From Balneola sp. (lineage in GTDB: Bacteria; Bacteroidota; Rhodothermia; Balneolales; Balneolaceae): 64,000 bases of DNA. The position numbers and the translations under genes were made by a program. The notes under the pieces are model-generated. The model did not search any database and had not been told where the DNA came from. It saw only the letters and a program-made list of their open reading frames with translations. This document shows positions 40,394-48,401 of the stretch, piece by piece (within the stretch, counting starts at the first letter, position 1; the number at the start of each line of letters is the position of its first letter). The DNA is taken from positions 13,742 to 77,741 of the forward strand of contig JBLWXC010000006.1 in the NCBI GenBank assembly GCA_048267645.1, in the 5' to 3' direction.

Positions 40394-42240
40394 AATTAAT
40401 GAGTACTTATAAACAATTAAAACCCTTGCAGTATTTATTTCTGTTGGGCTTGATATTTACACTTTCATGGGAGGTTAATGCACAAACTTTACCATTTAGA
40501 GAGTATACGAATCCGGATGAAATTGTAACCTTTGATAGGGCAACATCCTTTATTGAAGCTGTTGAAATTATTAATCAATTTGCTCAAGAATATGAGAACA
40601 AATTTATAGTTGATAAATCAGGATATTCAGGTGAAATAGGAGTTAGTTTACCTGCAATGCATTGGAAAGATGCGTTGACATACATTCTACAGTTTAGAAA
40701 TTTAGAACTTATTACCACTCCTCAGTATTATGAAATTGGAGTTAAAAAAATAGAGACTGGAAGTATACAGCAGAAAAATAGCCCTGCATTAGCTTCAACT
40801 CTACCACCATCAATTCAGTTAGCCACTACAGCAACTCGAGAAGTACGTATTAATGCTACTTTTTTTGAAGGTAATAAAAGAGCTCTACAAGAAATTGGTG
40901 TGGATTGGTCTACACTCACAAAGAATGTGCCAAGTAATATCCAAGATTTTGTAGACCCTGACGGAGACGAAGCTTTACCTCAAACTACTTTTAACGATCA
41001 ATTCGTATCAATAAACGCTACTAATGCAAATCAAGTTTCTCAGAATGTGTTTAATGCATTGGTAAATTTTGGTGAAGTTGGTCCTGTAAATGTTCAAGCA
41101 TTATTCAGTGCATTTGAGTCTAGTAACCTCGGTAATATTCTAGCAACTCCTTCCATTAAAGTAGTTGATGGTCAGGAAGGTAAAATTCAGGTTGGGCAAG
41201 ATTTCTCAATTAAACAGAAAGATTTTGCAGGAAATGTAAGCGACGCTTTTTACAGTACTGGTACAATCTTGACAGTTACCCCAACGGTTATCGAATATCA
41301 AGACACCACGTTTATACATCTAGATTTAGCTTTAGAACGATCTACTGCTTTACCTGATGCCGTAAGTACAATTGTTAATAAACAAACCGCACAAACACAA
41401 ACTTTGCTTCTTAATGGAGAAGCGACTTCAATTGCTGGTCTTTATAGAACCGACCATACAACCGTAAGAAGAGGTGTTCCTATTCTTAAGGATTTACCAC
41501 CATGGTTTTTTGGATTAAGATATATTTTTGGATATAATTCTGATGACAAACTTGAGAATGAATTGGTAATTCTCGTTCAAGCTGAACTTGAAAAATCTTT
41601 GCCTGAGCGAATGAACGAAGCTTTGGTTTCTAAAGGAATGCTACTTCAGCAAGAAAGAGAACGTTTTAGAAATGGCATGGATTATATTTTGGAGCAGGCT
41701 GCAAAAAGTGCTGAGGTTCCTTTGGATGTAAGTCCTAAAGTTGTAGAAGTTGAACCTGTAGAAAAAGTAGTTGAGCCCAAAATAGTTGAAACAGTTACTG
41801 AACCGGAAGTTGTTGCCCCTCCTAAAGAGGAATTAACTGAAATAGAGGAAGAGCAATTCTCTGAACTATCTATGCCAGTTAAAAATCCTGAATTAATGGT
41901 GGTTGTTCCAAAAGCTTTTGATTTGGATGATTACCTCGTAAAACAAGAAAATGGAGACTTAGAGGTAGCAGAAGAAGACAAATCACTAAAGTATTTTGTA
42001 ATTGGTGGTTCTTTTATTGTACCAGATAATGCCTATCGCTTTGAAAAGTCACTAGACGCTGAAGGCTTCGAGTCTCGGATTTTATACAACCCTAGCACTA
42101 AGTTTAATTATGTAGCTTATTATGGGTTTAGTAATTACGATGAAGCTGTTGCTCAAACACTTAAAATCCGTGAGGCTTTAAATTCTGAAGCTTGGTTATT
42201 TAAAATGGAAGGCAAAACAGAATATAAGGGAGAGAACTAA
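40390..42240 (+). CDS. pilQ: Secretin (PilQ-like) with C-terminal SPOR domain
   Basis: Signal peptide; VRINATFFE..EIGVDW, ATPSIKVVDGQ, TGTILTVTP, GVPILKDLP; P/E/V-rich linker; VIGGSF...A SPOR motif. Confidence 0.82.
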   Translation: MKLMSTYKQLKPLQYLFLLGLIFTLSWEVNAQTLPFREYTNPDEIVTFDRATSFIEAVEIINQFAQEYENKFIVDKSGYSGEIGVSLPAMHWKDALTYILQFRNLELITTPQYYEIGVKKIETGSIQQKNSPALASTLPPSIQLATTATREVRINATFFEGNKRALQEIGVDWSTLTKNVPSNIQDFVDPDGDEALPQTTFNDQFVSINATNANQVSQNVFNALVNFGEVGPVNVQALFSAFESSNLGNILATPSIKVVDGQEGKIQVGQDFSIKQKDFAGNVSDAFYSTGTILTVTPTVIEYQDTTFIHLDLALERSTALPDAVSTIVNKQTAQTQTLLLNGEATSIAGLYRTDHTTVRRGVPILKDLPPWFFGLRYIFGYNSDDKLENELVILVQAELEKSLPERMNEALVSKGMLLQQERERFRNGMDYILEQAAKSAEVPLDVSPKVVEVEPVEKVVEPKIVETVTEPEVVAPPKEELTEIEEEQFSELSMPVKNPELMVVVPKAFDLDDYLVKQENGDLEVAEEDKSLKYFVIGGSFIVPDNAYRFEKSLDAEGFESRILYNPSTKFNYVAYYGFSNYDEAVAQTLKIREALNSEAWLFKMEGKTEYKGEN

Positions 42241-43025
42241 GAAACGGCATTCTTTTCAATAAATTTAATGGAGAGTTCATTGAACTCTTCAGGCCGTTCA
42301 ACATTACATACATGCCCACAATCTTTTACTACTGCTAAATAAGATGAGGTGTGTTTTTCAACAATTTGTTTAACAGGAGGGAGAAACATATAATCTTCCT
42401 CTCCCATAATATAAAGCATTGGTGTTGATATCTCTTTCTCCTTGAAATAACGCAATAATGGGTTAATCTCGTTTGTAAGCTTAAACCATTTTAAAAACTC
42501 TTTTTGATATAGCTTTTTAGCCTCTCTTATAAAGAGGTTTCTGGATTCTTCGTGTCGTTTCCTTGGCATTATTATCCAAGCAAAAAACCTATATAAGAGC
42601 ATATACGGAATAACTCGTTTGAAAATATTTCCAATAAAAACGAGTATCCTCGATCTAACATTTAGTCTAGTTATTGCACCACAAAGTATCGCAGAATGTA
42701 TTCGTTCTGGAGCGATTTCTCCCAATGTTCTAATGATTATAGTTCCCAAAGAAACACCTACAAAGTGAGCTTTCTCTATCTTTAAATGATCAAGTACATC
42801 AATAATATCTTGGCTAATATTCTCAAAGGAATAATTCTCTTCATAATATTTCTGAAGTAAGTCTTTCGATTTACCGTGTCCTCGTAGGTCAATGAGAAGA
42901 ATGTTGAACTTTTTCTTATACGGCTTAATCTGATTAAACCAAATAGACGAACTTCCTCCAGCGCCGTGAATAAACACAACCCAGTCTGCCGATGGAGATT
43001 TTATATATTCTTTGTAATAAAGCAT
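42237..43025 (-). CDS. Alpha/beta hydrolase
   Basis: FIHGAGG, IDLRGHG, GVSLG elbow, GEED, CGHVCN. Confidence 0.88.
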   Translation of the reverse strand: MLYYKEYIKSPSADWVVFIHGAGGSSSIWFNQIKPYKKKFNILLIDLRGHGKSKDLLQKYYEENYSFENISQDIIDVLDHLKIEKAHFVGVSLGTIIIRTLGEIAPERIHSAILCGAITRLNVRSRILVFIGNIFKRVIPYMLLYRFFAWIIMPRKRHEESRNLFIREAKKLYQKEFLKWFKLTNEINPLLRYFKEKEISTPMLYIMGEEDYMFLPPVKQIVEKHTSSYLAVVKDCGHVCNVERPEEFNELSIKFIEKNAVS

Positions 43026-43155
43026 GCTTCTAACTAATCCTCAGGTGCAGAACATAAATTATTAAGTTTATAATGCAATAACATCCTACTAAATATTTCA
43101 TAATTCTGAATTAATATGATAGGAATATTATCTATTAACTAATAGGTAACTTGCT

Positions 43156-43941
43156 ATGATTAACTGCTCAAATAATTATAATTCTCAAACATTCAGAGAT
43201 TTTGAAATTAAAAGCCAAAAATATACTGTACGATTGGCTCTAAATCGAGAGGAGGTAGAAAAGGCATTAAGACTTAGATTTTATGTTTTTAACGTAGAAC
43301 TCGGTGAAGGTTTAGACGAATCTTATTCAAAAAAGTTAGATGAGGATTGTTATGATAAATTTTGTCATCACTTAATTATTATTGAGCACGCTACAAATGA
43401 AGTGATTGGAACGTATAGAATCCAAGATAGTGATAGTGCCAGAGAAGGATTTGGTTTCTATACGGAGAATGAATTTGATCTTTCAAATTTCCCAGAGTTC
43501 ATAAAAACTAATGCATTTGAACTCGGTAGAGCTTGCATTGATATGAATCATAGAAATGGGCGTGTACTTTATATGCTATGGAAAGGGCTAGCTAAATACA
43601 TGATTCTGTCAAATAAACGCTATCTCTTTGGTTGTTGCTCCATAACAAGCCAGAATCCTGATGAAGGCAGAGCGATATATGAGTACCTAAAACAAGGTAA
43701 CTATATTGATGCTAACTATTTCGCAAATGTAACTCCCGATTTTGAATGCCTAACTTTATCTTCAGAATTAGGCTATAACCAAAAAGTGGAAATTCCACAG
43801 CTTTTTAAACTTTATTTAGAATTAGGGTGCAAGGTATGTAGCCCACCTGCTTTAGATAAAGATTTTAAAACTATAGACTTTTTAATCCTTCTCGATATTG
43901 ATTCAATTTCAAAAGAAACAAGAGCACTTTTTTTAAAATAG
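43156..43941 (+). CDS. OlsB-like GNAT N-acyltransferase (amino acid N-acylation)
   Basis: LRLRFYVF, D.YDKFCHHL, IGTYRI, FYTENEFD, ELGRACI, LWKGL, YLFGCCSI. Confidence 0.85.
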   Translation: MINCSNNYNSQTFRDFEIKSQKYTVRLALNREEVEKALRLRFYVFNVELGEGLDESYSKKLDEDCYDKFCHHLIIIEHATNEVIGTYRIQDSDSAREGFGFYTENEFDLSNFPEFIKTNAFELGRACIDMNHRNGRVLYMLWKGLAKYMILSNKRYLFGCCSITSQNPDEGRAIYEYLKQGNYIDANYFANVTPDFECLTLSSELGYNQKVEIPQLFKLYLELGCKVCSPPALDKDFKTIDFLILLDIDSISKETRALFLK

Positions 43942-43958
43942 TTTACTAGATTCTCTCC

Positions 43959-44750
43959 ATGAGGATTTTGAGAATAATTGTACGATTACCGGCTTTTTTA
44001 CTAATTACCTTGGGTTGCTATTTACTGGTAATGGTGGGCCGATTAGCAACTGCTTTAGGGTTTAAAGGGCAAACAATTAGTAACTATTTTTTAGGTTTAT
44101 GGGGACATCTTGCTTGCCTAGTACTGGGAATGAAAGTCAAAGTAACAGGAAACGCTCCGAAACCACCTTTTTTTATTGTAAGTAACCATTTAAGCTATGT
44201 TGATGTAATGGTTCTTTGTAAAACCACACAAACTTTGTTTGTTGCAAAGAATGAGGTAAAGAACTGGCCAATTTTTGGAATTCTTGCAAAAACAATAGGA
44301 ATGATTTTTGTTGATAGAGAGAAGAGATCTGACGTAGCACGTGTCAACAAAGAAATTTCAGACAGACTTGAGAAAAATTACGGAGTCACAATATTTCCTG
44401 AGGCAACTACAAGTCCAGGCTATGAAATTCTTCCATTTAAAACATCATTGCTTGCATATCCCGCTGCAAGAAATATCCCCGTGCATTATGCTTCTATTAC
44501 TTACTCAACACCAGAAGATGAACAAGAAGCTTATATGGCAGTTTCTTGGTGGGGAGAAATGCCATTTTTAAGCCATTTTATTAATATTTTGTCTTTAAGA
44601 AACTTTACCTGCAATATTACGTTTGGTGAAGAGCCAGAACTTCATAACAATAGAAAAGTGTTGGCGTCAACATTACATAAAAAAATATCACATACATTTA
44701 ATCCAGTAATAGAATATTCAAAGTATGCAGAAAGACACAGGATTGAGTAG
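43959..44750 (+). CDS. OlsA/PlsC-like acyltransferase
   Basis: SNHLSYVD (HX4D), FVAK, FVDR, FPEATT motifs. Confidence 0.88.
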   Translation: MRILRIIVRLPAFLLITLGCYLLVMVGRLATALGFKGQTISNYFLGLWGHLACLVLGMKVKVTGNAPKPPFFIVSNHLSYVDVMVLCKTTQTLFVAKNEVKNWPIFGILAKTIGMIFVDREKRSDVARVNKEISDRLEKNYGVTIFPEATTSPGYEILPFKTSLLAYPAARNIPVHYASITYSTPEDEQEAYMAVSWWGEMPFLSHFINILSLRNFTCNITFGEEPELHNNRKVLASTLHKKISHTFNPVIEYSKYAERHRIE

Positions 44751-44845
44751 CCTCAGGTTCAATTTATGGAACGAAGAAATACGTTTCAGCCTTCAATTTA
44801 CAATATGAACTGGGTAGCGACGCTTTACATTTCGCATACTAATTA

Positions 44846-47341
44846 ATGAAAAAACTAAAAAGCTTTTACACCTCAATAAGCTGGAAATACTGCGTTGTTG
44901 GTTATTTATTTCTTCTCGCGTGCTCTTTCTTTTATCTGACATTTACACAGAATGATTCTTCAAACGAATTTATAACTCACCTAAGTTCTGATAATATTCA
45001 GAAACCAATTGTCTTACTTATTCCAGATCTACAGAATCTCGACAATTTAGGTGATTTGGATACTTTTCTTAGCACAGATTTCAATCTACTTGTAGCAGAT
45101 TATAGAGAATTATACAACCAAGAAGATAACAAAAAGCGATTTCACGCATCTGATAATGCTCAAATACTGGTCAAGCAATTAGAAAAATTACAGACTAGAA
45201 AAGTTCATATTGTTGCACAGGGTTTCGGTGGAATTATTGCTGCTAATGCAATTGCCCAGAGCCCAGATGCTTTTTCTTCCATTACATTCATTAACCCTTC
45301 TGGATTACAGGAGTATGAACTACTTGGCGGTTATGCTATGAATAAGGCAGTATATGGAGCACAAACTGGTTTTTGGTGGGGAGCATATTATTTAATACCA
45401 CATTTTGGTTTTCTAAAATCAGCTCATTTAAAACATCAATTTAATAGAGCGAATTACCAAACGGATAGAAGAGATTTAAGGGAAATATTCAAACAAATAA
45501 AAATTCCAACACTAATTGAACAGAAAACGAATAGAAAATTCGAAACCTTTGGGATTTCTAAAGAGATTGAGCGGTTAGTTCCGCAGAGTGTTTTCAAAGA
45601 ATATGATGTTACTGAAATGGGGTATGTAAATTCTGAAGAAGCTATCAAGGAGTTTATTCTATCTGTTAATCAAGGTGATATTATCCAACCTTCACAAGAA
45701 AGAATTGCAATAGCGAAACTTCCATTTGAATACAAAAATGTAATTAAAGCAGAAGGGTGGACCTTAATTGCCCTCATGCTTTTAATCGTTTTTTCTACAT
45801 TTATTTCTGAGGATTTAGCGTGTATTGGAGCAGGACTTATGGTAGCCCGAGGGCTTATGGGTTTTTGGCCAGCTATGCTTGCAGGTCTATTAGGGATACT
45901 TGTTGGTGATGTTTTTATTTACTTGGCTGGCAGATGGTTAGGGAAGTCTGCTGTGACTCGAAAACCTTTTAGCTGGTTTATAAACGAGCAGGATTTAGAA
46001 CGTTCTTATCATTGGTTTAAAACTAAAGGGCCAATTATAATTATTGCAAGTAGATTTATCCCAGGCACTAGATTTCCCACATACTTTAGTGCAGGAATTC
46101 TTGGCGCCAGCTTCTTTATGTTCATGTCTTACTTTGTAATTTCCTCGATTGTATGGACACCATTAATTGTGGGACTTTCCATGGCTTTGGGGCAACAAAT
46201 GATGGATTACTTCACTATGTACCAAGGGTACGCAATGTGGTTAATAATTGGCCTCGTAGCTTTTGTTTATCTTTTCATTAAACTAGTAGTTCCATTATTT
46301 ACCTACCGTGGAAGAAGAACTCTAAAAGGAAAATTTATTCGGAAAAGAAATTGGTCGTTTTGGCCGACTTCCATACTATATTTCCCTGTAGGGATTTACC
46401 TTATTTATTTATGGATTAAGCACCGAAGTATCTCTCTTTTTATAGCTACAAATCCAAACATTGAAGGTGGTGAAATTGTAAGGGAATCAAAGTCTAAGAT
46501 TTTGGAGCAAATCAATGAACAATCTGCCGTAGCACCATTTATTGTTCTCAAAAATGAATGCTCGCTAGATGAAAATTTATCTCTTTGTGATACTTTTATC
46601 GATAACCAAGAAATCAATTATCCCGTAGTATTAAAACCAGATTCAGGAAAGAATGGAAAAGGTGTTAAGTTCATTCAGAATAGAGAATCTCTAGAAAATG
46701 AGCTTAAATCTTTAAAAGAAGTTCATTTACTTCAGAAATTTGTAGAAGGACAAGAATTCGAGATATTCTATTATCGATATCCAAATGAGGCTAAAGGGCA
46801 TATCTTTTCAATTACTAGGAAGGAATTACATTTCCTAACTGGAGATGGAGAGAAGAATATTGAGGAACTAATTTTAAGGGATGATAGAGCGATATGCTTG
46901 GCAGATTTACATCTCGAAAAATTTATGCATGAACTTTATGATATCCCTGAGCAAGGAGAAAGGGTTCCATTGGTTGAACTAGGCACACACTCTAAAGGCG
47001 CTCTATTTTTTGATGGAGAAGAGTTTAAAACTCCTGAACTAGCACTAGCTATAGATCGTATTAGCAAGAGCTTTAATGGCTTTTATTTTGGACGATACGA
47101 TGTTAAAGTTCCAACAGAAGAACACCTGATGAAAGGAGAAGGGATTCTGGTATTAGAGTTAAATGGTGTTACTTCAGTGTCTACAAATATATATGACCCA
47201 AAATATGGATTTAAACATGCAGTAAGAATACTGGCGAAACAATGGGAAATAGCGTATAAGATTGGTTCAATAAATGCAAAAAAGGGATTAAAAAAAACAG
47301 GGACCATGGGCTTCATTAAACAATTAGTGAACACCCATTAG
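44846..47341 (+). CDS. Fusion of degenerate alpha/beta-hydrolase, DedA/VTT membrane domain and ATP-grasp ligase
   Basis: N-terminal TM; hydrolase fold with AQGFGG elbow; DedA motifs (STFISEDLAC, GDVFIY..GR, SRFIPGTR); ATP-grasp motifs (LKPDSGKNGKGV, QKFVEG, GRYDVK, ELNG). Confidence 0.8.
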   Translation: MKKLKSFYTSISWKYCVVGYLFLLACSFFYLTFTQNDSSNEFITHLSSDNIQKPIVLLIPDLQNLDNLGDLDTFLSTDFNLLVADYRELYNQEDNKKRFHASDNAQILVKQLEKLQTRKVHIVAQGFGGIIAANAIAQSPDAFSSITFINPSGLQEYELLGGYAMNKAVYGAQTGFWWGAYYLIPHFGFLKSAHLKHQFNRANYQTDRRDLREIFKQIKIPTLIEQKTNRKFETFGISKEIERLVPQSVFKEYDVTEMGYVNSEEAIKEFILSVNQGDIIQPSQERIAIAKLPFEYKNVIKAEGWTLIALMLLIVFSTFISEDLACIGAGLMVARGLMGFWPAMLAGLLGILVGDVFIYLAGRWLGKSAVTRKPFSWFINEQDLERSYHWFKTKGPIIIIASRFIPGTRFPTYFSAGILGASFFMFMSYFVISSIVWTPLIVGLSMALGQQMMDYFTMYQGYAMWLIIGLVAFVYLFIKLVVPLFTYRGRRTLKGKFIRKRNWSFWPTSILYFPVGIYLIYLWIKHRSISLFIATNPNIEGGEIVRESKSKILEQINEQSAVAPFIVLKNECSLDENLSLCDTFIDNQEINYPVVLKPDSGKNGKGVKFIQNRESLENELKSLKEVHLLQKFVEGQEFEIFYYRYPNEAKGHIFSITRKELHFLTGDGEKNIEELILRDDRAICLADLHLEKFMHELYDIPEQGERVPLVELGTHSKGALFFDGEEFKTPELALAIDRISKSFNGFYFGRYDVKVPTEEHLMKGEGILVLELNGVTSVSTNIYDPKYGFKHAVRILAKQWEIAYKIGSINAKKGLKKTGTMGFIKQLVNTH

Positions 47342-47814
47342 CGTCTCTTTCTTTGGAAAAAATCTTTTAACAAAAACTCGCAATCACTCTCTAGTATTCC
47401 TTGTATCACATTTATTTGGTGATTTAACTCTTTATTAGCCGAAATATTAAATAAGGAGCCACAACCTCCAGATCGGGGATCAGATGCTCCAAAAACGATG
47501 GTATCAATCTTGCTCCAAACTAACGCTCCCGAGCACATTGGGCAAGGTTCTAAAGTAACATAGAGAGTACATCCTGTTAAATATTTCTCACCTAAAGTTT
47601 CACAAGCTGCAGAAATTGCAATCATTTCAGCATGAGCAGTAGGGTCTTTAAGAGTCTCAACTTGATTGTAACCTTTGCCAATAATCTGCTGATTTTTAAC
47701 TACAAGAGCACCTATCGGAACTTCACCTTTTCGCTCGGCTTCTTCGGCTAATAGCAGTGCTTTCGCCATAAACTGCTGGTGTGGTTGCCATAATGCAGGT
47801 TTGGTTTTTTCCAT
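47338..47814 (-). CDS. tadA: tRNA-specific adenosine deaminase
   Basis: EVPIGA, DPTAHAE, TLEPCPMC motifs. Confidence 0.9.
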   Translation of the reverse strand: MEKTKPALWQPHQQFMAKALLLAEEAERKGEVPIGALVVKNQQIIGKGYNQVETLKDPTAHAEMIAISAACETLGEKYLTGCTLYVTLEPCPMCSGALVWSKIDTIVFGASDPRSGGCGSLFNISANKELNHQINVIQGILESDCEFLLKDFFQRKRR

Positions 47815-47861
47815 GTGCTTGGTTTGTTTATCTTCTTTTTTTAAAGTTAAATCTATTGATA

Positions 47862-48401
47862 ATGCCGATCGAAAAAGACAACATCTCTGAATTCCTGTTA
47901 AGTAAAATCAGAACAATTTCAGACTTTCCTAAACCAGGAATTCAATTTAAAGATATAACTACATTACTTGCCGATAAAGAGGCATTAAAATTAACTTCTC
48001 AAACGCTTACAAAGCCTTTCTTAGATAAGAATATTGATGTTGTTGTTGGCCTTGAGTCACGTGGTTTTCTATTTGGAACTAATATCGCAGAGCTTTTGGA
48101 TGCGTCTTTTGTACCTGTAAGAAAACCAGGGAAACTTCCATCTGAAGTTATTTCAGAAAGCTATGCTCTTGAATACGGAACAGATAGCGTAGAAATGCAT
48201 GTTGATGCTATCAAAAAAGGCGATAGAGTTTTAATTCATGATGATTTAATTGCCACCGGTGGAACTGCAGCCGCCGCTACTAGGCTTGTTGAAAGGCTAG
48301 GTGGGGAAGTAGTTGGTTACTCATTTATTATCGAGCTTGGATTCTTAAATGGCAGAGAAAGTCTAAAAGATTCATTTATTGATAGTATTATCGTTCTTTA
48401 G
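47862..48401 (+). CDS. apt: Adenine phosphoribosyltransferase (start moved from 47781 to ATG 47862)
   Basis: DFPKPGIQFKDIT, ESRGF, RKPGKLP, LEYG, HDDLIATGGT; the longer call overlaps tadA head-to-head. Confidence 0.95.
   Translation: MPIEKDNISEFLLSKIRTISDFPKPGIQFKDITTLLADKEALKLTSQTLTKPFLDKNIDVVVGLESRGFLFGTNIAELLDASFVPVRKPGKLPSEVISESYALEYGTDSVEMHVDAIKKGDRVLIHDDLIATGGTAAAATRLVERLGGEVVGYSFIIELGFLNGRESLKDSFIDSIIVL

Follow-up and report, generated by a model that had tools for sequence, protein, structure and literature searches.

Three co-oriented open reading frames make up the locus, which lies in a window of 64,000 nucleotides (the whole stretch of DNA from a marine Balneola sp. that was analyzed), with intergenic gaps of 17 nt (gene 1/gene 2) and 95 nt (gene 2/gene 3), exactly as an earlier note on this DNA had stated. 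The first two genes encode an OlsB-like and an OlsA-like acyltransferase and the third a large membrane fusion protein, P0001, in which a transmembrane (TM) helix, an α/β-hydrolase fold, a DedA/VTT domain, and an ATP-grasp domain follow one another from the N to the C terminus. The features are as follows.

43156-43941, + strand: OlsB-like GNAT N-acyltransferase gene (261 aa)
43959-44750, + strand: OlsA-like (PlsC-family) HX4D O-acyltransferase gene (263 aa), with a hydrophobic N-terminal segment
44751-44845, no strand: spacer between the olsA-like and fusion genes (95 nt)
44846-47341, + strand: gene for P0001 (831 aa), a member of the hydrolase-DedA-ATP-grasp family
44888-44947, + strand: N-terminal TM helix (aa 15-34; hydropathy peak aa 16-34; model helix 13-34)
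44963-45715, + strand: α/β-hydrolase-fold domain (aa 40-290), predicted to be catalytically dead in the window's copy
45743-46300, + strand: DedA/VTT membrane domain (aa 300-485), intact and the most constrained part of P0001
46301-46426, + strand: basic loop (aa 486-507) and conserved hydrophobic/amphipathic helix (aa 508-526) preceding the ligase
46427-47338, + strand: ATP-grasp ligase domain (aa 528-831) of the cyanophycin-synthetase-G/GshAB/Ddl type

The spacer, which showed no terminator-like site, is the position at which most relatives carry a ∼180-residue DinB-family gene and some also a TANGO2-like gene, both of which are absent here. The Balneola locus is a real observation and its arrangement is far from chance; the fusion architecture is that of a conserved family (at least 749 homologs with full-length coverage, and 248 loci in GTDB genomes).

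The Acyltransferases

Gene 1 matches PF13444 (Acetyltransf_5) in Pfam at 1.3e-28 (100 bits versus a cut-off of 22.4) and is the single match to this family in a profile search of the whole Balneola genome. Its top NCBIfam model is OlsB (7e-41), at 141 bits against an equivalog cut-off of 350 for the Rhodobacter type; the Brucella-type OlsB model (131 bits, cut-off 320) is likewise below equivalog level, and the GlsB model gives only 23 bits (cut-off 300). Gene 2 matches PF01553 (Pfam, 8e-22), its top NCBIfam model is OlsA at 143 and 127 bits, short of the equivalog cut-off of 300, and its translation contains the HX4D motif as NHLSYVD together with an FPEGT-like block, FPEATTS. Both enzymes are under purifying selection: gene 1 retains 67 of the 69 columns conserved in 45 homologs (dN/dS 0.08-0.14) and gene 2 all 33 of its conserved columns (dN/dS 0.08-0.17).

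The pair resembles the OlsB/OlsA ornithine-lipid pathway of the Sinorhizobium meliloti type, where a PF13444 N-acyltransferase is followed by an adjacent, co-oriented PF01553 HX4D O-acyltransferase. The earlier reading of the two genes as OlsB then OlsA holds for the domains and the best NCBIfam models, but not at equivalog level, where the Balneola enzymes differ from that pathway in scoring less than half of the cut-offs; even "ornithine" is therefore unproven as the head-group amino acid. Relatives of OlsB/OlsA include GluB (glutamine lipid), GlsB/GlsA (glycine lipid), and OlsF.

The TM Helix, Hydrolase, and DedA Domains of P0001

The AlphaFold model of P0001 has a mean pLDDT of 84.5. The N-terminal TM helix includes two residues, Y20 and S27, with a family conservation of 90% or more. 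The hydrolase domain has a weak Pfam match to Abhydrolase_1 (aa 97-166); its top Foldseek matches are α/β hydrolases (∼1e-7, TMt 0.55-0.70) and its profile matches PDB hydrolases at 8.6e-13. The weak Pfam calls in gene 3, for the hydrolase and the ATP-grasp domain alike, are thus borne out by the predicted structures.

The catalytic triad is lost here, though outside the Balneola clade it remains intact: in P0001 the Ser of GYSMGG has become Gly125 and neither the Asp nor the His of the triad is retained, whereas sampled members from outside the Balneolaceae keep the motifs G-Y-S-M-G-G, HGxxDxLVP, and GGHxL, and many Fodinibius/Halalkalibaculum-type members also have an intact triad. The description of this domain in the earlier note as a pseudo-hydrolase is right for the window's copy, for which an active serine hydrolase (a Ser-Asp-His triad with a GxSxG elbow) was rejected. 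Within the window's subclade the domain evolves at a dN/dS of ∼0.25.

The DedA domain matches PF09335 (VTT/DedA) over aa 330-444 at 2e-17 (64 bits versus a gathering cut-off of 33.9). Across 58 sequences there is no variation at E322, D323, D355, R403, or R409, the conserved acidic residues within the membrane and the R-x-x-P-G-x-R motif are both present, and these conserved residues presumably correspond to those of Escherichia coli YqjA. The domain retains 39 of 40 highly conserved columns at a dN/dS of ∼0.05 and, with OlsB and OlsA, shows the clearest sign of being kept by selection in the Balneola lineage. The top NCBIfam match of this region is the undecaprenyl-phosphate transporter UptA, an equivalog assignment that was rejected because the score, 64 bits, is well short of the cut-off of 250.

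The ATP-grasp Domain

The ligase is joined to the DedA domain by a basic loop (aa 486-507), with a family mean of 6.4 Lys/Arg residues over aa 484-507, and a helix (508-526) that is seen in the AlphaFold model and is also present in stand-alone ATP-grasp homologs, whose N termini share the consensus WEFWP...YPPV...KHRS (alignment A3). Its retention even in the stand-alone forms favors membrane proximity of the ATP-grasp domain. Pfam matches to the ligase are weak (aa 581-640; RimK at 21.5 bits versus a cut-off of 21, with other models just below cut-off), and the domain is modeled with a pLDDT of 88.6 and a pTM of 0.86. A Foldseek search with this model returned CphA1, GshAB, and Ddl (7wae at 8.4e-12, 3ln7 at 9e-11, and Ddl at ∼1e-9), and a profile search of the PDB returned CphA2 (7ta5, 5.8e-8).

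The likeness to the CphA G domain, CphA2, GshAB, and Ddl extends over the fold (Foldseek 8e-12 to 1e-9, TM ∼0.5), the K-P...G-x-x-G loop, and the R-x-D and E-x-N Mg/phosphate ligands, and an insert of the hvvGDGxxTLxELI type is common to CphA and P0001. In contrast to these enzymes, the ligase of P0001 is membrane-tethered through its hydrophobic helix and the DedA domain and shares only 11-19% identity with them; the M and N domains of CphA1 and the GshA part of GshAB are also absent. The domain is therefore best described, from its predicted fold and its motifs, as an ATP-grasp of the amino-acid/peptide C-N ligase type, which makes an amide extension of a lipid head group chemically reasonable.

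P0001 keeps K549, K597, Q630, H715, R750, D752, E771, and N773. Five of these (K597, R750, D752, E771, and N773) are invariant or at least 90% conserved across the fusion family, and the ATP-binding Lys and the R-x-D and E-x-N ligands align with the KP and E-x-N blocks of CphA2. Altogether 58 of 63 highly conserved columns are kept, the five changes being E504S, G543E, R603N, G639E, and E778V, where R603 and E778 are conserved in at least 95% of other members. In the window's subclade the domain has a dN/dS of 0.27-0.31, as fast as the dead hydrolase. The proteins of sister species, P0003 and P0004, have lost 18-19 of the 63 columns, including R750, E771, and N773, and with these Mg/phosphate ligands gone their ATP-grasp domains appear dead. 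The alignments thus indicate a catalytic core that is kept in the window's copy under a constraint that has relaxed in its subclade and, given the losses in the sisters, the "assembly line" proposed earlier may be partly vestigial here.

These observations bear on an alternative in which P0001 would act here as a DedA-type scramblase or flippase, either of the OlsBA product or of lipids in general, with vestigial enzymatic domains and no extension of the head group. The strong constraint on the DedA domain, the missing triad, the fast evolution of the ATP-grasp domain, its decay in P0003 and P0004, and the absence of DinB and module-type TANGO2 genes from the locus are all consistent with such a role. 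On the other hand, the window's own copy keeps all eight ligase residues listed above and 58 of its 63 columns, folds confidently, and evolves at a dN/dS (∼0.3) that still denotes purifying selection, so we regard this alternative as rather unlikely.

Gene Linkage and Split Architectures

All but one of the Balneolaceae loci with enough flanking sequence have OlsB/OlsA-type genes beside the fusion homolog; synteny in this family reaches the unrelated flanking genes pilQ and tadA, so this linkage is not independent evidence. Among 25 loci from outside this family that have enough flank, 12 show the linkage, to OlsB/OlsA or, in Desulfobacterales, to a non-orthologous OlsF. The genes immediately upstream of the fusion are OlsB and OlsA in Balneolaceae, in Calditrichia (L034, L064, and L067), and in L057, L062, L072, L078, and L079, and an OlsF-type bifunctional synthase adjoins it in L044, L047, L052, and L054. 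The linkage is seen in Balneolota, Calditrichota, Rhodothermota, KSB1-like, and Acidobacteria-type loci, with OlsF as the partner in Desulfobacterales. Because each genome tested holds only one PF13444 gene in 3.8-6.3 Mb, adjacency within 6 kb would be expected by chance in ∼0.3% of cases. In about half of the loci from outside the Balneolaceae (Verrucomicrobiota, Kiritimatiellota, and some Desulfobacteraceae), no aminolipid synthase lies within 6 kb, and all five of the "unlinked" genomes tested still hold one OlsF-sized PF13444 ORF elsewhere.

The module also occurs in split forms. One locus (L083) reads OlsB-OlsA-174aa-TANGO2-[DedA+ATP-grasp], with a separate downstream hydrolase whose relation is uncertain; two others (L084 and L093) have [hydrolase+DedA] followed by [ATP-grasp], and in Acidobacteria-type loci a DinB-133aa-[DedA+ATP-grasp]-TANGO2 arrangement faces a PF13444 gene. 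Linkage to PF13444 therefore recurs in three forms (OlsBA, OlsF, and lone OlsB-like) across distant phyla, the split architectures included. Genes of the DinB family and TANGO2-like genes also accompany the fusion module as conserved partners, DinB lying upstream of the fusion gene in 48 of 80 loci in the gene-order maps. A query for a DinB-family homolog found none in the Balneola sp. genome of the window, and the module-type TANGO2-like partner is absent from the locus. The earlier note had made its proposal depend on gene 3 being linked to olsB/olsA-like genes in other genomes; this linkage does recur across phyla, and the comparison supports a functional link among the three genes.

Two further alternatives can be weighed against these data. 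The ATP-grasp domain could first make a soluble head-group precursor, a dipeptide or modified amino acid, to be acylated afterwards by OlsB, which would place the ligase upstream of the lipid. Ddl and L-amino-acid ligases make products of this kind, the nearest structures (Ddl, GshAB, and CphA) all belong to enzymes that couple soluble amino acids or peptides, and the distance of OlsB from every characterized equivalog would allow an unusual acceptor. However, a DedA membrane domain accompanies the ligase in every case, within the same protein or encoded beside it, and the hydrophobic helix conserved even in the stand-alone ligase is hard to square with a purely soluble reaction; we consider this order of events unlikely. 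It is very improbable that P0001 is unrelated to aminolipids and acts on another envelope lipid (polyprenyl-phosphate-linked or a peptidoglycan precursor, through an UptA-like DedA and a Ddl-like ligase) with olsBA adjacent only incidentally since, despite the UptA match, the Ddl structural neighbors, and the many Verrucomicrobiota/Kiritimatiellota loci without a nearby aminolipid synthase, the UptA score is far below equivalog level, the PF13444 linkage recurs as described, and no cell-wall genes are found among the conserved neighbors of the fusion family.

Proposed Function

In most lineages the same protein seems to have an active Ser-Asp-His hydrolase and to be accompanied by DinB-family and TANGO2-like (Cys-Ntn) partners. 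The Balneola copy is a trimmed-down form of this arrangement, with the partners missing, the hydrolase dead, and the ligase under relaxed constraint. We give about an even chance to the reading that the three genes represent, in reduced form, a widespread module of genes found alongside aminolipid synthases and acting on the aminolipid head group. The earlier note had missed that the locus is cut down from a larger module, with DinB, a TANGO2-like protein, and an active serine hydrolase, and that constraint on the ligase has relaxed in this subclade. Its assembly-line reading stands insofar as the linkage and the ligase type fit an amide extension, and is weakened by the reduced locus and the relaxed constraint on the ligase.

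Judged from gene content and conservation, the module probably modifies or moves aminolipids. By family membership, the OlsB-like enzyme would N-acylate an amino acid with a 3-hydroxy fatty acid and the OlsA-like enzyme would then O-acylate the product to an acyloxyacyl amino-acid lipid, on which P0001 may work as a membrane enzyme. The DedA domain could bind or translocate this aminolipid in the bilayer, and the membrane-proximal ATP-grasp domain could use ATP to form an acyl-phosphate and from it an amide bond at the head group; in the simplest form, the free α-carboxyl of the aminolipid would be joined to an amine or amino acid, though the amine of this lipid or a lyso form may instead be the target. 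The charge bias is ambiguous for an order with the hydrolase outside and the ligase inside.

Comparison with Known Systems

MprF combines a head-group synthase and a lipid-translocating membrane domain in one polypeptide, and associated hydrolases could reverse or trim the modification. P0001 would follow a similar logic but has no sequence relation to MprF, would use ATP (ATP-grasp) rather than aminoacyl-tRNA, has a DedA domain in place of the MprF flippase, and probably acts on an aminolipid rather than phosphatidylglycerol. Membership in the MprF family was rejected, as Pfam and NCBIfam matches place neither an aaPG synthase nor an MprF flippase domain in P0001.

The locus is also reminiscent of the Vibrio cholerae vca0646-0649 operon, in which an aminolipid synthase, there an OlsF, lies with genes lacking an assigned function. 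VCA0646 is a second functional OlsF, co-expression of vca0646 and vca0647 leads to colony cell death, and VCA0647-0651 have no function assigned (PMC12186959, PMC11573629).

A printed description of a hydrolase-DedA-ATP-grasp plus OlsBA module was not found in the literature. Described aminolipid pathways have no ATP-grasp, DedA, DinB, or TANGO2 partner (PMC12971839, PMC11631085), and a review of March 2026 names no ATP-grasp, DedA, or TANGO2 partner (PMC12971839). The same review reports that transfer of taurine onto the ornithine-lipid carboxyl is ATP-dependent and that the gene responsible is not known (PMC12971839). The ATP-dependent amide at the head-group carboxyl of cerilipin, the tauro-ornithine lipid of Gluconobacter cerinus (PMC12971839), is the kind of bond that an ATP-grasp enzyme encoded beside OlsBA could catalyze.

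Organization of the three-gene locus

The locus lies on contig C6 of a 3.77-Mb genome that is 99.9% complete and comprises three co-oriented genes, separated in the ORF listing by gaps of 17 nt (genes 1 and 2) and 95 nt (genes 2 and 3).

43156-43941, + strand: gene 1, OlsB-like N-acyltransferase (GNAT-type, PF13444; best NCBIfam models OlsB)
43959-44750, + strand: gene 2, OlsA-like acyltransferase (PF01553; best NCBIfam models OlsA)
44846-47341, + strand: gene 3 (P0001), 831-aa fusion of alpha/beta-hydrolase, DedA/VTT and ATP-grasp domains

Gene 1 scored 141 bits against its OlsB model (cut-off 350) and gene 2 scored 143 bits against its OlsA model (cut-off 300), the translation of the latter containing an HX4D motif (NHLSYVD) and an FPEATTS block. 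The DedA/VTT domain of gene 3 is a solid Pfam match (aa 330-444, 64 bits), and the weak matches to alpha/beta-hydrolases (aa 97-166) and ATP-grasp enzymes (aa 581-640) are confirmed, since structure prediction agrees with both. The full-length model has a pLDDT of 84.5, and its N-terminal part resembles alpha/beta hydrolases (Foldseek). The C-terminal model (aa 505-831; pLDDT 88.6, pTM 0.86) matches the G domain of cyanophycin synthetase (7wae, 8.4e-12), GshAB (3ln7 and 3ln6) and D-Ala-D-Ala ligases in Foldseek, and a family profile finds CphA2 (7ta5) at 5.8e-8. The layout, gaps and domains described in the earlier note were thus right in every particular. In a promoter and terminator scan of positions 42900-47900, promoter-like sites were fewer than in shuffled sequences and the gaps between genes held no terminator, a result that says nothing about operon structure. 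The sequencing runs matching the locus are DNA only and all come from marine metagenomes.

Distribution and architecture of the fusion family

The three-domain architecture of gene 3 is that of a conserved family, which is uncharacterised but assembled from known domains. At least 749 full-length homologues are present in the protein database, and 248 fusion loci were found in species-representative genomes; the retrieved loci carry the phylum labels Balneolota, Calditrichota, Rhodothermota, Thermodesulfobacteriota, Myxococcota, Verrucomicrobiota, Kiritimatiellota, Latescibacterota, KSB1 and Bacteroidota. The fusion in the window groups with those of Balneola MAGs (67-68% identity; Balneolaceae, Balneolota).

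A query with the ligase part alone returned 1497 proteins, including two-domain DedA+ATP-grasp proteins of ~510-545 aa (with Acidobacteria and Dadabacteria names, and Planctomycetota in Atlas) and stand-alone ATP-grasp proteins of ~320-390 aa. Split forms of the fusion also occur. Locus L083 is arranged as OlsB-OlsA-174 aa-TANGO2-[DedA+ATP-grasp], with a separate alpha/beta hydrolase gene downstream whose kinship with the fused hydrolase domain is uncertain; its product has no signal peptide as called, the gene start being uncertain. At two further loci (L084 and L093), [hydrolase+DedA] is followed by [ATP-grasp]. The Acidobacteria-type loci have the order DinB-133 aa-[DedA+ATP-grasp]-TANGO2, facing a lone PF13444 gene; the 133-aa ORF between the DinB and DedA-ATP-grasp genes is conserved (L090:5600-6001 and L092:5594-5995) and has no Pfam match. 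A DoxX-like gene (~135-140 aa) was observed 3' of the fusion in L027, L029, L032 and L034.

Linkage to aminolipid synthases

Gene neighbourhoods were mapped around 80 homologues. In essentially all Balneolaceae, OlsB-like and OlsA-like genes lie directly upstream of the fusion; these loci amount to roughly one observation, because unrelated flanking genes (pilQ and tadA) are common to them too. Outside the family, linkage was found in 12 of the 25 loci with adequate flanks. OlsB/OlsA, or OlsB alone, are upstream in three Calditrichia lineages (L034, L064 and L067) and in L057, L062, L072, L078 and L079. In four loci of Desulfobacterales/"Deltaproteobacteria" (L044, L047, L052 and L054), an OlsF-type bifunctional synthase (PF19576+PF13444) adjoins the fusion instead, and this non-orthologous replacement is strong evidence of a functional tie between the synthases and the fusion. 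The split forms tell the same linkage story as the fused loci.

PF13444 genes are near-universal in Bacteroidota. Exactly one was present in each of the six genomes tested (3.8-6.3 Mb), and the chance of a fusion gene and a PF13444 gene lying within 6 kb of one another is ~0.3%. All five "unlinked" genomes tested carry one OlsF-sized PF13444 ORF elsewhere. The proposal that gene 3 belongs with olsB/olsA-like genes, for which the earlier note had asked for linkage in other genomes, is therefore borne out both inside and outside Balneolaceae. Comparative genomics lends good support to a functional coupling of the genes, as the aminolipid interpretation of the cluster had implied; the ligation chemistry that it attached to them is plausible only.

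Two further genes recur at these loci. Of the 80 loci, 48 have a gene for a DinB-family protein (~180 aa) ahead of the fusion, and 15 have one for a TANGO2/NRDE protein between the two; the TANGO2/NRDE protein carries the N-terminal Met-Cys and the NRDE motif that a Cys-Ntn hydrolase should have. In five loci outside Balneolaceae (L057:81-2433, L062, L067, L078 and L079), three extra genes precede olsB. One encodes a 347-aa fusion of a ferric-reductase-like transmembrane domain with a Rieske domain; the products of the other two, of ~170-200 aa and ~256 aa, have no Pfam match. All three may be additional, perhaps oxidative, tailoring partners.

Reduction of the module in the window

The module in its complete form consists of aminolipid synthases, DinB, a TANGO2-like protein and the hydrolase/DedA/ATP-grasp protein. 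DinB and module-type TANGO2 genes are missing from the window locus, where the 95-nt spacer takes their place, and a DinB query against the whole genome found nothing. The only TANGO2/NRDE-family gene of this genome (L094:1501-2271, equivalent to G000:C11:35445-36215; PF05742, 255 bits) lies on another contig, a distant paralogue sharing only 28% identity with the module-type proteins. Its product begins with MC and contains the NRDE motif; codon 154 is an in-frame TAG, which reflects a pseudogene, a sequencing error or read-through.

The hydrolase triad of the family is formed by Ser in G-Y-S-M-G-G, Asp in HGxxDxLVP and His in GGHxL, and is kept in every sampled member outside Balneolaceae and in many Balneolaceae of the Fodinibius/Halalkalibaculum type. 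The Balneola-type clade has Gly at the nucleophile position; the window's protein has Gly125 and lacks both Asp and His, so that the label "pseudo-hydrolase" was apt for this copy. Selection across the fusion, calculated for the window and its three closest relatives, is uneven: dN/dS is ~0.05 in DedA, ~0.25 in the dead hydrolase and 0.27-0.31 in ATP-grasp. Purifying selection on OlsB and OlsA is of the ordinary kind (dN/dS 0.08-0.17), and 67 of 69 and all 33 of their conserved columns, respectively, are retained. Taken together, the missing partners, the lost triad and the uneven selection identify the locus as a natural reduction of the module, in which selection has clearly kept the DedA domain and the pair of synthases.

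For the ATP-grasp domain, comparison with 55 other members gave 63 reference columns with conservation of at least 95%. The window's protein differs at five (E504S, G543E, R603N, G639E and E778V) and retains K597, K549, H715, R750, D752, E771 and N773. Judged from these residues, its ligase may still be functional, and the proposed ligation step may be weakened in this reduced copy. The fusions of the sister Balneola MAGs (L002:6001-8496, L003 and L004) have 18-19 of the 63 columns changed with the DedA domain kept, and the changes include R750Y/Q, E771A and N773D. We take R750, E771 and N773 to be phosphate and Mg ligands by analogy with DdlB (R255/D257/E270/N272), and on this analogy the ligases of the sister species are probably inactive. 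The sister fusions look like a stepwise decay of the enzymatic domains. The resulting series, from the full module, through loss of DinB and TANGO2-like proteins with a dead hydrolase (the window genome), to a probably dead ligase as well (the sister species), indicates which components selection keeps together.

Neighbouring genes in the window

42237-43025, - strand: divergent alpha/beta hydrolase (PcaD/MenH/BioH-like, 262 aa), just upstream of olsB
47338-47814, - strand: convergent tadA-like deaminase gene, its 3' end overlapping the fusion stop by 4 nt
47781-48401, + strand: divergent phosphoribosyltransferase (ComF-like) ORF, overlapping the deaminase start by ~34 nt

Packing 3' of the fusion gene is very tight, leaving no room for a terminator there. 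The upstream hydrolase has 95% amino acid identity to relatives whose OlsB, OlsA and fusion are only 68-75% identical, with dN/dS of 0.02. It is syntenic throughout Balneolaceae and was found outside them only in the Calditrichia locus L034, 3 kb from the fusion. This gene was considered as a replacement in trans for the dead hydrolase domain and rejected, as its synteny is bound to Balneolaceae (and L034), its conservation is extreme and nothing was found to link it with the module.

Proposed mechanism and membrane topology

The fusion is a partner of aminolipid synthases, the ATP-grasp domain is of the amino-acid/peptide C-N ligase type, and the ligase is obligately associated with a membrane domain, a hydrophobic helix being conserved at its N terminus even in stand-alone forms. 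We infer that the ligase, working at the membrane surface, would form an acyl-phosphate on a carboxylate and couple the carboxylate to an amine. The simplest pairing would bring together an amino acid or amine and the free alpha-carboxyl of an acyloxyacyl aminolipid; the lipid amine could also serve as the nucleophile, or the ligase could act on the lyso form. The DedA domain would present or translocate the lipid, and the transfer or removal of acyl or aminoacyl groups could, in canonical members, fall to the Ser hydrolase and the Cys-Ntn TANGO2-like protein. An alpha/beta hydrolase, OlsI, serves as the O-acyltransferase of the OlsHI route (PMC12971839).

Hydropathy and K/R bias yield two self-consistent topology models for gene 3. 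The first has a cytoplasmic hydrolase, an N-out first helix and a canonical N-in/C-in DedA domain, and places 12 more K/R residues inside; the second has a periplasmic hydrolase, with helix 508-526 as a sixth transmembrane segment. The K/R-rich loops 366-400 and 484-507, with a canonical DedA domain, point to both catalytic domains being cytoplasmic, and the basic N-terminal tail points instead to an outward-facing hydrolase.

Relation to known aminolipid pathways

Aminolipids stand in for phospholipids in many marine and soil bacteria. The system is of an already known kind, aminolipid synthesis with a tailoring step, here with gene 3 from an uncharacterised family. Three synthesis routes and five modifications are recognized for ornithine lipid (PMC11631085, 2024; PMC12971839, March 2026) and, unlike the module, the pathways in both reviews include no ATP-grasp, DedA, DinB or TANGO2 partner. 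No relevant paper came up when published full text was searched for ATP-grasp together with ornithine lipid or DedA. One of the five modifications is ATP-dependent taurine ligation, and the transferase that makes cerilipin in this way has been without a known gene since the 1970s (PMC12971839).

The family thus places a membrane-tethered ATP-grasp ligase beside aminolipid synthases in at least eight phyla, a concrete candidate for chemistry resembling taurine ligation. It also connects a defined lipid pathway with DedA proteins and, by way of neighbouring genes, with bacterial TANGO2 relatives. A broader reading, which we offer tentatively and consider rather unlikely as a whole, is that the DedA-ATP-grasp core supplies the ATP-dependent ligase long sought for aminolipid head groups, of the type behind tauro-ornithine lipid, joined in one polypeptide to a lipid translocator as a tRNA-independent counterpart of MprF, and that the five-part module (OlsB/OlsA or OlsF, DinB, TANGO2-like, hydrolase and DedA-ligase) makes, moves and edits an undescribed class of membrane lipid. 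If so, bacterial TANGO2 relatives would for the first time have a biochemical setting, and the Balneola locus, as a naturally occurring "minimal" variant, would help to sort out which parts are required.

In V. cholerae, VCA0646 is a characterised second OlsF (PMC12186959), its gene belongs to the vca0646-0649 operon, and colony cell death follows when vca0646 and vca0647 are expressed together (PMC11573629); VCA0647-0649 are without annotation in both papers (the latter with supplements) and in the Tn-Seq preprint. Fodinibius species show two unidentified aminolipids on TLC (PMC12260241) and carry the module, a co-occurrence that is suggestive only.
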